Below, piece after piece: positions 8,853 through 10,475 of a stretch of 32,788 bases of DNA; the stretch's first letter is position 1, and the number at the start of each line of letters is the position of its first letter. The notes under the pieces are model-generated. The model saw only the letters and a list, made by a program, of their open reading frames with translations. It made no database searches and was not told the origin of the DNA. The position numbers and the translations under genes were made by a program. This DNA is from Candidatus Falkowbacteria bacterium (GTDB lineage Bacteria > Patescibacteriota > Patescibacteriia > Patescibacteriales > UBA12465): positions 1 to 32,788 of the forward strand of contig JBAXIF010000001.1 in assembly GCA_037138515.1 (NCBI GenBank), written 5' to 3'.

Positions 8853-10475
8853 TTATTTAATAATTTCAATAATTTTACCCAACTCTGAACCGCAAGATCT
8901 AATCATTAAGCGACCATTATCAGTCTTTTTAACAGCATACCCCGTTTGGCTATTAGTGCCAGAGCTAGGGTCGATAGGCATAGCTGTTAAATATTTAGGT
9001 GATAAATCAGAAGACAAATCAACACAATTATCATTAGTTAATTCTGAGGTTGATAACGCATTAACAGTAACAGCTAAAAAATTAGGACTAACCGTACTAG
9101 AATCTGTTTCTAATATTGCCCGATATTGGAAATATCTATTGTCAGCTAAATTGGTAAGAGCAAAGGATACTGGGGCTAAAGAAGTATTATTAGCCTCAGA
9201 ATAAAAGCTAGCAGCTGTCCCATCTGGACCGATAAAATTCTGACCAACACAGGAGGTGTCAGCACAAGATCTAACCTGAAGCTTCAAACGAAGTGCTCCA
9301 CGACGATAGTGATCTAAAATTTCACTCGCTGATAAAGCTCGATTATAAATTACCACTTCATCTAATCTCCCGTTAAAATAACGATCAGGCGTAGTTCGAC
9401 GACCAATATTAATAGGAGATGCAGAGGTTGTTAAAAATCCACTTCTACTACTAGAATTTTCCAAGACACCATTAACATAAATTCTAACTTGATTACTGGT
9501 GTTATCCCAAGTTCCTACAACATGATACCAGACGCCCATTACTGGTTGAGTGTTAGAAAGGATATAAGATCGGCCAGAAGTTGTCATAACAGCCAACTCA
9601 AAACGAGTATTGGTTTGATTATGTTGAATCTGATACTGATTATCAGCATTCTTATTAATAATGTTAGCCCAGGGCTGGCCCGTACTTGGATTAATACTCC
9701 AATTAACCCAAGCCTCTAAAGTAACTCCGTTAACCGGATTCAAGCTGGCAGAATTAAGCACTGACAAATAACTAGTTGTACCATTAAAGCCAAGGGAATT
9801 ATTAATTTTTCCTGATTGATTGTAAGTTACCCCACCAACTGAGGTGCCGTTATTATTCTGTCCTGAATAATCAGCCACTAGACCACTGGTTTCATTTAAA
9901 TGATAAAGCAGGACATTGCCGCTCATATTAGCGTTAGCCGAATTATAAGCAGTTTCAGATTGAGCAGAGCTTGGCAATTCTTTACCATAAGGAGCGCTGG
10001 GTGACCAATAAATACTTTGCCATTTAGAGGAAGCCGAGGCATCCTTAATACCAGAATTAAAATAACCGGTGCCAGCAGTCCTTCCAGCCGCATTCAACTC
10101 TAAATATGATCCATATTGAGTATTATTATAAACCCCAGAACCAAAACTAATAGTGGAATTATCAAGATAAGATAAGGCCGAGCTGCCATTACTACCACAC
10201 CAAATTTGACAGCCGGAAGCAGACGAACCCAAAACCCTCCAATTATTATCGATGCCTACCGGCATCTGGCTATTATGATCAATGGCGTATTCATAAACCG
10301 CATTAGAAATAGTAGAAATATCCATTTGACGACTAGAATTTCTGGTAGCCGCTAATTGCTTAGAAGGATTTATAGCCAAAATAACTATTGCTACCAAAAT
10401 TGATATGATAAAAATCACTAATAACATTTCTATCAGCGTAAAAGCAATTTTTTTATTTTTAGATATTAGTTTCAT
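8853..10475 (-). CDS. Type IV pilin-like protein (540 aa) with a ~390-aa LamG-containing insertion in the globular head
   Basis: N-terminal prepilin motif KKIAFTLIEMLLVIFIISILVAIVI. LamG (Laminin_G_3)-like block LGFNGTTSYLS...VTLEAWVN...WYHVVGTWD...VRIYVNGV...FNGRLDEVVIYNRALSASEI. The N- and C-terminal pieces match the 156-aa pilin at 14577-15047. Confidence 0.85.
   Translation of the reverse strand: MKLISKNKKIAFTLIEMLLVIFIISILVAIVILAINPSKQLAATRNSSRQMDISTISNAVYEYAIDHNSQMPVGIDNNWRVLGSSASGCQIWCGSNGSSALSYLDNSTISFGSGVYNNTQYGSYLELNAAGRTAGTGYFNSGIKDASASSKWQSIYWSPSAPYGKELPSSAQSETAYNSANANMSGNVLLYHLNETSGLVADYSGQNNNGTSVGGVTYNQSGKINNSLGFNGTTSYLSVLNSASLNPVNGVTLEAWVNWSINPSTGQPWANIINKNADNQYQIQHNQTNTRFELAVMTTSGRSYILSNTQPVMGVWYHVVGTWDNTSNQVRIYVNGVLENSSSRSGFLTTSASPINIGRRTTPDRYFNGRLDEVVIYNRALSASEILDHYRRGALRLKLQVRSCADTSCVGQNFIGPDGTAASFYSEANNTSLAPVSFALTNLADNRYFQYRAILETDSSTVSPNFLAVTVNALSTSELTNDNCVDLSSDLSPKYLTAMPIDPSSGTNSQTGYAVKKTDNGRLMIRSCGSELGKIIEIIK

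Follow-up and report, generated by a model that had tools for sequence, protein, structure and literature searches.

A candidate modular type IV pilin of a Patescibacteria genome with a LamG-bearing module nested in a cysteine-flanked loop of the pilin head

How can a pilin hold a cargo about four times the size of its own head and remain recognisable as a pilin? The question is raised by two genes in a 32.8 kb stretch of DNA of ∼36% G+C, in which nearly every gene lies on the minus strand (hereafter the window; contig C1 of genome G000, a Candidatus Falkowbacteria bacterium). The genome comprises 919 kb in 132 contigs and is 91.7% complete, and the names of its protein relatives (WS6/Dojkabacteria, Harrisonbacteria, Magasanikiibacteriota, Nomurabacteria) place it in the Patescibacteria, or Candidate Phyla Radiation (CPR). 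One of the two genes encodes a long pilin (P0001) and the other a bare, cargo-free pilin (P0002). The comparison of these proteins, and of their relatives, leads us to regard P0001 with moderate confidence as a modular type IV pilin displaying a lectin-like module that could bind glycans, either at or near the pilus tip or sparsely along the shaft.

Pairwise comparison of the two proteins by BLASTP returned two blocks of similarity with nothing significant between them. The N block joins residues 9–93 of P0001 to residues 4–87 of P0002 (40/85 identical, 47%; E = 2e-24), and the C block joins residues 478–538 to residues 94–154 (30/61 identical, 49%; E = 2e-16). Both similarities far exceed chance, which bears out the original prediction that the proteins share the N-terminal helix, the residues following it, and the last ∼57 residues. 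Residues 94–483 of P0001 (390 residues, nt 9027–10196) stand in for a 12-residue loop of P0002, residues 88–99. With cysteines at positions 89, 93, 404, 409, 484 and 528 in P0001 and at 83, 87, 100 and 144 in P0002, the insertion site falls between the second and third cysteines of a four-cysteine pattern (C93 and C484 in P0001, C87 and C100 in P0002), and the coordinates and cysteine positions agree with the insertion between conserved cysteines that had been proposed. The description of the two as the same pilin was too strong: their pilin modules are ∼48% identical, no closer than either is to the module of an insert-bearing 532-residue paralog on contig C27 (36–47%), and the two are members of one family.

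A type IV pilin is recognised by a basic leader, glycine or alanine at position −1, phenylalanine at +1, glutamate at +5 and a hydrophobic stretch of ∼20 residues, all of which were found in P0001. The Pfam family N_methyl (PF07963) matched its residues 7–31 with 23.8 bits (cut-off 21.2), the leader reading KKIA/FTLIEM. In P0002 the motif is visible (KRA/FTALE) at an N_methyl score below the cut-off (15.8 bits). Across 75 long forms, residues F12, T13, L14 and E16, and with them Phe+1 and Glu+5, were at least 90% conserved; the head cysteines C89, C93 and C528 were invariant, and C484, E531 and I536 reached at least 90%. A profile built from the long forms matched the N-terminal helices of solved type IV pilins, including the Geobacter pilin, PilA4, PulG and PilE1. 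The profile of the short family (A2) also matched helices of solved type IV pilins in the PDB, at E = 1.2e-7.

Structure prediction, as recommended with the original prediction, was performed for both proteins with AlphaFold. The model of P0001, built on 75 full-length relatives, reached a predicted local distance difference test score (pLDDT) of 93.7 and a predicted template modelling score (pTM) of 0.78, and that of P0002 reached 92.8 and 0.81, respectively. By these predicted models, the "lollipop" fold of type IV pilins, an α1 helix of ∼50 residues on a small antiparallel β-sheet, is present. The P0001 model runs through a helix (14–66), a strand (80–83), the insert, a strand (481–485), a short helix (488–491) and three strands (510–517, 523–527 and 537–539), with a pLDDT of 88–95 in the C-terminal block. 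The counterparts in the P0002 model are the helix 104–107 and the strands 126–133, 139–143 and 153–155, and both models therefore read helix-strand-helix-three-strand. A Foldseek search of the PDB with the P0002 model gave no match at E ≤ 0.001. In the predicted models the pilin fold is retained around the insert; the cargo is thus nested in the head, not appended to it, and decorates the fold without breaking it.

The insert consists of two nested parts. In the AlphaFold 2 (AF2) model it is a β-sandwich, here called domain A (strands within 100–159 and 395–475), which holds a LamG/ConA-like jelly roll (residues ∼186–394) in a loop of its own. A LamG domain with a flanking β-rich segment had been anticipated, and both were recovered: Pfam Laminin_G_3 (PF13385) matched residues 231–386 at E = 5.6e-32, and the segment NRYFQYRAILETDSSTVSPNFLAV (residues 446–469) is part of the flanking domain. 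Among solved structures, the LamG region matched an S-layer-domain protein at E = 2.8e-21, and its nearest relatives were domain 4 of AbnA, the CBM40 of a sialidase, the pentraxins and PilC. The many matches to receptor-binding domains of clostridial neurotoxins, at 11–20% identity, represent a shared lectin-like jelly roll and carry no information on toxicity. In the 75 long forms, H192, D202, S204, D372 and E373 of LamG were invariant, and C404, C409, Y448, F449, Q450, Y451 and P464 were conserved in domain A. The structure-comparison list of the P0001 model (VIA-align), consulted for the fold of domain A, was filled by LamG.

Natural variants confirm the boundaries of the two domains. Domain A stands alone in the loop of P0197 (281 residues, matching residues 437–475 of P0001) and LamG stands alone in P0142; in P0208 and P0183 another cargo is nested in domain A, P0230 has CBM96 in addition, P0009 carries the module doubled and P0063 has RCC1 repeats nested in LamG. 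The intermediate forms that the original prediction had suggested looking for thus exist, as domain A alone, as LamG alone and as domain A with other cargo. In P0063 (924 residues), and also in P0062, four nesting levels were observed, with RCC1 repeats and DUF2341 inside LamG, LamG inside domain A and domain A inside the pilin loop; the flanks of P0063 match residues 2–257 and 316–540 of P0001.

The module was also observed outside pilins. Residues ∼105–471 of P0001 aligned contiguously, at 38–44% identity, within non-pilin proteins of 570–940 residues with ordinary signal peptides; Zixiibacteriota, Sumerlaeota, Nitrospiraceae and Saganbacteria are among the names of their sources. The module was also sought in 150 other genomes sampled from the phylum (151 with the genome itself), and five carried it in frames of 583–1148 residues that matched only query residues ∼92–485. 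Judging from these alignments, the insert is a mobile, self-contained module. A suspected resemblance of its LamG to a LamG-like stretch (residues ∼1253–1347) of an RHS protein in the window proved weak (29% over 97 residues, E = 3e-4), and Pfam gives no LamG call in that stretch at E ≤ 0.001; by these comparisons a common superfamily is the most that links the two, and no specific kinship is apparent. The RHS protein is encoded by an open-ended open reading frame (ORF) of 2200 residues (window 3–6602, minus strand) with SpvB, FG-GAP and RHS-repeat regions, a Tc/Rhs-like polymorphic-toxin architecture whose C terminus lies off the window.

To place the two pilins within their family, an exhaustive HMMER search with the short pilin was performed, which yielded 2941 hits at E ≤ 1e-3, of which 588 reached E ≤ 1e-10. 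The best 150 of the 2941 were then classified together with P0001 and P0002 (152 proteins, with coordinates from phmmer). Bare forms of 135–175 residues accounted for 57 of the 152, forms with an insert of 49–768 residues at the acceptor loop for 74, forms with a C-terminal extension for 20 and a form with an N-terminal extension for one. Fifty-six of the bare forms were among the best 150 hits, and the best hit for P0002 was a bare protein of 156 residues at 62% identity. In the 67 insert forms resolved by hmmsearch, the insert was bounded near profile positions 94–97. By similarity to P0001, the 74 inserts comprised 47 with domain A and LamG, three with domain A lacking LamG, two with LamG alone and 22 others. 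A Pfam scan of 26 proteins (25 odd-sized insert forms and the single form with an N-terminal extension) identified CBM96 in five, LamG alone in three, and one each with F5/8 type C (discoidin), CBM96 with LamG, DUF2341, RCC1 with LamG and DUF2341, a doubled LamG and a weak DUF6152 match only, while 11 showed no cargo family. A word-index search with P0001 returned 589 hits at E ≤ 1e-3, among them hundreds of ∼540-residue long forms at 35–80% identity. The closest relative (80%) is another long form, and NCBI names these relatives "LamG-like jellyroll fold domain-containing protein". No P0002 homolog of 85–273 residues was returned by the word-index search.

All four pilin cysteines were present in 136 of the 152 classified proteins. 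In six proteins no cysteine stands at the fourth position (five substituted, one gapped); there, one cysteine of the first pair is present beside the third. The pattern would suit a disulfide at the base of the acceptor loop together with a second that ties down the C-terminal strand. We infer from it that the base of the loop is probably closed by a disulfide; for the pairing the co-variation is suggestive, as the exceptions are few and ambiguous between the first two cysteine positions. The positions of all parts of the long pilin are collected in Table 1.

Table 1. Positions of the two pilin genes and of the predicted parts of the long pilin within the window
Feature	Position (nt)	Strand	Basis
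Long pilin P0001, 540 residues	8853–10475	minus	ORF and translation
Bare four-cysteine pilin P0002 of the same family, 156 residues; acceptor loop residues 88–99 at nt 14751–14786	14577–15047	minus	
Long pilin, class III (prepilin) leader, residues 1–11; predicted cleavage A11/F12, E16 as Glu +5	10443–10475	minus	Sequence, Pfam N_methyl
Long pilin, helix α1, residues 12–66, kink at P37	10278–10442	minus	AF2 helices 14–35 and 37–66
Pilin head, N-terminal part, residues 67–93: αβ-loop, strand 80–83, SGCxxxC (C89, C93)	10197–10277	minus	BLASTP N block, AF2 strand 80–83
First half of domain A with linker, residues 94–185	9921–10196	minus	AF2 strands 100–159; P0197, P0208, P0183
LamG/ConA-like jelly roll nested in domain A, residues 186–394	9294–9920	minus	
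Second half of domain A, residues 395–483: C404/C409 hairpin, NRYFQYR...SP motif	9027–9293	minus	AF2 strands 395–404, 437–439, 446–457, 465–475
Pilin head, C-terminal part, residues 484–540: C484, helix 488–491, strands 510–517, 523–527 and 537–539, C528	8856–9026	minus	BLASTP C block

The genome holds six members of the subfamily: the bare P0002, P0001 and the 532-residue paralog on contig C27, which carries the same module and is 43% identical to P0001 over its full length, and three genes of 348–353 residues that encode a complete pilin module with a C-terminal domain behind it. On contig C27 (2147–6847) the 532-residue LamG-insert form is directly followed by a 353-residue form, with a second 353-residue form 970 nt further on; the C-terminal domains of both 353-residue forms end in a motif, "...F(A/S)VRCL", that resembles Fib_succ_major by eye. 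A second and much larger pilin subfamily was also observed, with 25 ORFs in this genome, including one in the window (24074–25372, minus strand), that share [GAS]FTLIELLVVIAIIG. Their first ∼70 residues are near-constant (the first 210 nt are 56–98% identical in DNA, median 76%) and are followed by a variable C-terminal cargo, which in the window member is He_PIG with a Fib_succ_major-like domain. Fifteen of the 25 ORFs lie within 800 nt of a contig end; the repeats therefore probably break the assembly, and they could support recombination between pilin genes.

Across the sampled phylum, the bare-pilin profile matched 95 of the 151 genomes at E ≤ 1e-12, many of the matches covering the helix alone. 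Among the matches listed, a near-full-length bare copy was present in at least ∼31 of the 150 other genomes, often in tandem, with four tandem copies in G072:C114 and three in G057:C6; split N and C matches within one frame, which mark insert forms, were listed in G054, G138 and G072. As to the pilus machinery, contig C6 carries PilB-like and PilC-like genes followed directly by pilin genes and holds the probable major pilin (G000:C6:7643–8098), a frame of 403 residues on C6 matched the T2SSF platform family over the cut-off, and five matches to T2SSE ATPases over the cut-off were found in the genome. A frame of 1010 residues (G000:C65:143–2635, minus strand) contains two T2SSE-type ATPase matches and may be a tandem or fused pair.

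Pilins with additional modules are established in the literature. A modular pilin combines a pilin module with a module that is not specific to pili, and the occurrence of the insert in non-pilin proteins places P0001 among them. The survey of Raynaud et al. (2021; PMC8179133) reported more than 1,200 such proteins in 264 architectures, with CPR among the representatives, and listed the N-terminal methylation motif with PF13385 as one of the 15 commonest architectures. P0001 has the same domain content, N_methyl and Laminin_G_3. It differs in topology, as the surveyed modules are grafted C-terminally via a short linker, whereas the P0001 module is nested at 94–483 and residues 484–540 rejoin the head. 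The sections of the survey considered here describe no nested topology, shared acceptor loop, domain A or bare counterparts. The survey does count GspK, which has an inserted domain, as a likely modular pilin, and P0001 therefore differs in topology and not in kind.

Modular pilins are described as adhesins at pilus tips (PMC8179133, PMC9934059), and PilB and PilC of Streptococcus sanguinis and ComZ have been modelled as fitting only there. In S. sanguinis PilC (PDB 7oa8/7oa7; PMC9934059), Ig-like (immunoglobulin-like) and lectin modules lie C-terminal to a short pilin moiety, whereas in P0001 the module is nested and the chain returns to the head; PilC shares 16% identity with P0001, lacks domain A and belongs to another phylum. 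Domains inserted in the pilin sheet are known from ComZ of T. thermophilus (PDB 6qvi; PMC6561018) and from GspK. The insert of ComZ, at ∼380 residues, is of the size found in P0001, and steric arguments have placed ComZ at the tip (PMC6561018). The ComZ insert is a β-solenoid between the penultimate and last strands and the GspK insert is an α-domain, whereas that of P0001 is a β-sandwich with a nested LamG, placed after the first strand in a cysteine-flanked loop; furthermore, ComZ is described as lacking the canonical pilin motifs (PMC6561018), which P0001 has. An insertion-type pilin bears a foreign domain in its sheet and keeps its fold, and in P0001 this was found in predicted models only. 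An engineered Synechocystis PilA1 with SpyCatcher (bioRxiv 10.64898/2026.06.09.731259) shares the idea of a folded domain in a pilin loop, with assembly intact. It differs in being engineered, a major pilin and the bearer of a single small domain, and that text uses neither the term "natural" nor "modular pilin". The literature searched, largely outside subscription journals, contained no four-cysteine Patescibacteria pilin family with a shared acceptor loop, bare counterparts, a domain A adaptor or multi-level nesting, and Dataset S1 of PMC8179133 may list such proteins. Modular, lectin and insertion-type pilins have thus already been published; the nested cysteine-flanked loop, domain A, the bare counterparts and the multi-level nesting appear new by this search.

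Taken as a modular pilin, P0001 would be exported, processed as a pilin and taken into a type IV filament via its conserved helix. One loop of its four-cysteine head would have been expanded by ∼385–390 residues through a pre-formed two-domain module projecting from a cysteine-held base. Since both ends of the module join the chain at a single loop, the pilin fold can close again behind it. The lectin-like module would be held away from the filament and could there bind glycans of a host cell or some other surface; the nearest solved relatives of LamG, and CBM96 and F5/8 type C as other cargoes of the same loop, make glycan binding probable. The size of the cargo relative to the head makes a tip or sparse position likely, by analogy with S. 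sanguinis PilB/PilC and ComZ, and a role in adhesion would be plausible on the same analogy with PilC and ComZ. P0002 belongs to the same scaffold family and bears no cargo.

Several observations weigh against this interpretation. A full-length long form was found in only one of the 150 other genomes (G072, with two copies), and such rarity marks it as an accessory gene, not as core pilus equipment. Neither P0001 nor P0002 lies in a pilus operon. The sole prepilin peptidase match of the genome, to Peptidase_A24, scored 24.7 bits, below the cut-off of 26.5, in an assembly whose completeness is given above. The residue at −1 of the P0001 leader is alanine, where glycine is canonical. Domain A matched no Pfam family, and an ESM Atlas look-up of the P0197 insert named none, with feature hits of at most 0.86. 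Lastly, the match between the P0001 and P0002 models is one of secondary-structure order and confidence, not of superposition.

Part of this evidence would be expected if P0001 were instead a surface-anchored lectin, acting as a receptor or capture protein and using its class III signal peptide and helix for export and tethering only. Archaeal sugar-binding proteins with pilin-type signal peptides reportedly offer a precedent. The 919 kb assembly holds 39 prepilin-motif ORFs, most of them with a cargo of 200–550 residues, which exceeds the plausible need of any one filament; the distance of the P0001 gene from pilus genes and the bulk of its cargo point in the same direction. A mere anchor, however, would not need the complete head that P0001 has kept, nor the C-terminal strands and cysteines conserved in the 75 long forms. 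The conservation of Phe+1 and Glu+5 and the frequent tandem arrays of the bare members, as seen for pilins, also speak against it, and we consider a surface-anchored lectin unlikely.

Weaker still is the case for a minor pilin that serves competence or a pseudopilus and whose module captures DNA or a secreted substrate, as in Thermus ComZ. Patescibacteria probably rely on the uptake of external nucleic acids, and several T2SSE-type ATPases are present in the genome. ComZ demonstrates that a large β domain inserted in a pilin can bind DNA (PMC6561018). The nearest solved relatives of LamG are nevertheless carbohydrate-binding or lectin-type, the CBM96 and F5/8 type C found as cargo in the same loop are carbohydrate-binding families too, and a DNA- or substrate-capturing pilin appears improbable next to the lectin-displaying modular pilin that we favour.

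The remaining question is how the bare and insert forms are related. The trees used, quick trees and FastTree trees, were unrooted and poorly resolved. In a tree of the pilin module (138 columns with the loop excluded, 151 rows), bare and insert forms interleaved: the tree required 28 insert/no-insert changes, at least four of them forced by well-supported branches, against a mean of 50.9 when labels were shuffled, and none of 500 shuffles was as low as 28. A single clade of the 47 A+LamG pilin modules was rejected by the approximately unbiased (AU) test under LG+G4 (difference in log-likelihood 452, p = 1.7e-9), with the 47-member group having been named after a tree had been seen. In 44 single-module forms, pilin and cargo distances were uncorrelated (Spearman 0.05, Mantel 329/999) and nearest neighbours by pilin and by cargo coincided in 8 of the 44, with medians of 55% and 66% different. 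These distances are fitted by co-inheritance at the tips together with either shuffling or saturation deeper in the tree. The distances are too saturated to separate shuffling from loss, and in unrooted, poorly resolved trees gain, replacement and loss are indistinguishable for any single lineage. Several independent acquisitions are nonetheless required, as unrelated cargo types occupy one site.

For the two window genes, the idea of a parent and its derivative did not hold. The nearest relative of P0002 is a bare pilin, its sister P0122 in the pilin-module tree (support 96), and P0001 belongs to its own family of long forms; on these relationships the two are members of one family, neither a recent pair nor parent and offspring. 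A reading of P0002 as an orphan, or as a deletion derivative of a long form, had been entertained earlier and was overturned by the 56 bare forms, leaving it as a minor rival. It would have P0002 lose its cargo and reverse the direction of insertion for this pair, and it could draw on the failure of the word-index search to find a short homolog, on an early quick tree, in which P0002 fell inside the long-form clade on a long branch with an outgroup split of 99, and on the interleaving and rejected A+LamG monophyly, both explicable by repeated loss. Given the 56 bare forms of 135–175 residues in the best 150 hits, a 156-residue sister at 62% identity and the eight or more unrelated types of cargo at a single site, which need repeated gains or replacements, there is little chance that P0002 arose in this way.

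The family analysis also allows a broader, more tentative proposal, which we regard as possible though somewhat doubtful: that the four-cysteine pilin is an evolvable display scaffold of Patescibacteria, whose disulfide-closed loop would accept at least eight kinds of cassette and up to four levels of nesting (pilin, domain A, LamG and RCC1, from outside to inside), swapped among pilin genes and non-pilin secreted proteins.

The surroundings of the two genes complete the description of the locus. P0001 is preceded at 6 nt by a ferric-reductase-like gene and followed at 35 nt by a Cu-oxidase_4 family gene, all on the same strand, and a terminator-like hairpin near P0001 appears only downstream of the latter. 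The gene after P0002, at a distance of 11 nt, encodes an HI0933-like flavoprotein. Divergent from the P0002 gene, at 15187–15528 on the plus strand, is a gene for a small protein of 113 residues, rich in cysteine and glycine, that has a single hydrophobic segment and matches no Pfam family. Elsewhere in the window, both on the minus strand, a surface-type protein of 1817 residues (27271–32724) carries 13 Big_13 Ig-like repeats with a PDLD(S/A)ADDTG-type motif ahead of each and also matches Big_6 and other Ig-like families, and an overlapping HepT-like ribonuclease (110 residues) and nucleotidyltransferase (98 residues) at 20077–20692 are arranged as is usual for MNT/HepT toxin-antitoxin pairs.

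Among the ways in which cultivated Patescibacteria find a host and hold on to it, type IV pili are described as the best supported, and in Saccharibacteria they drive host binding (PMC11623550). The family described here offers concrete candidate recognition modules together with a fixed mounting place on the pilin. To the known strategy of grafting a module onto a pilin it contributes an acceptor loop that is nested and flanked by cysteines, and it records that nature has repeatedly inserted folded domains at one site in a pilin loop while keeping the predicted fold, with cargoes of up to ∼770 residues, a problem that is now being tackled by design. If the four-cysteine pilin does serve as a display scaffold, episymbionts could quickly re-target their pili to new host surfaces, and engineers would have a natural template for displaying domains on pili.

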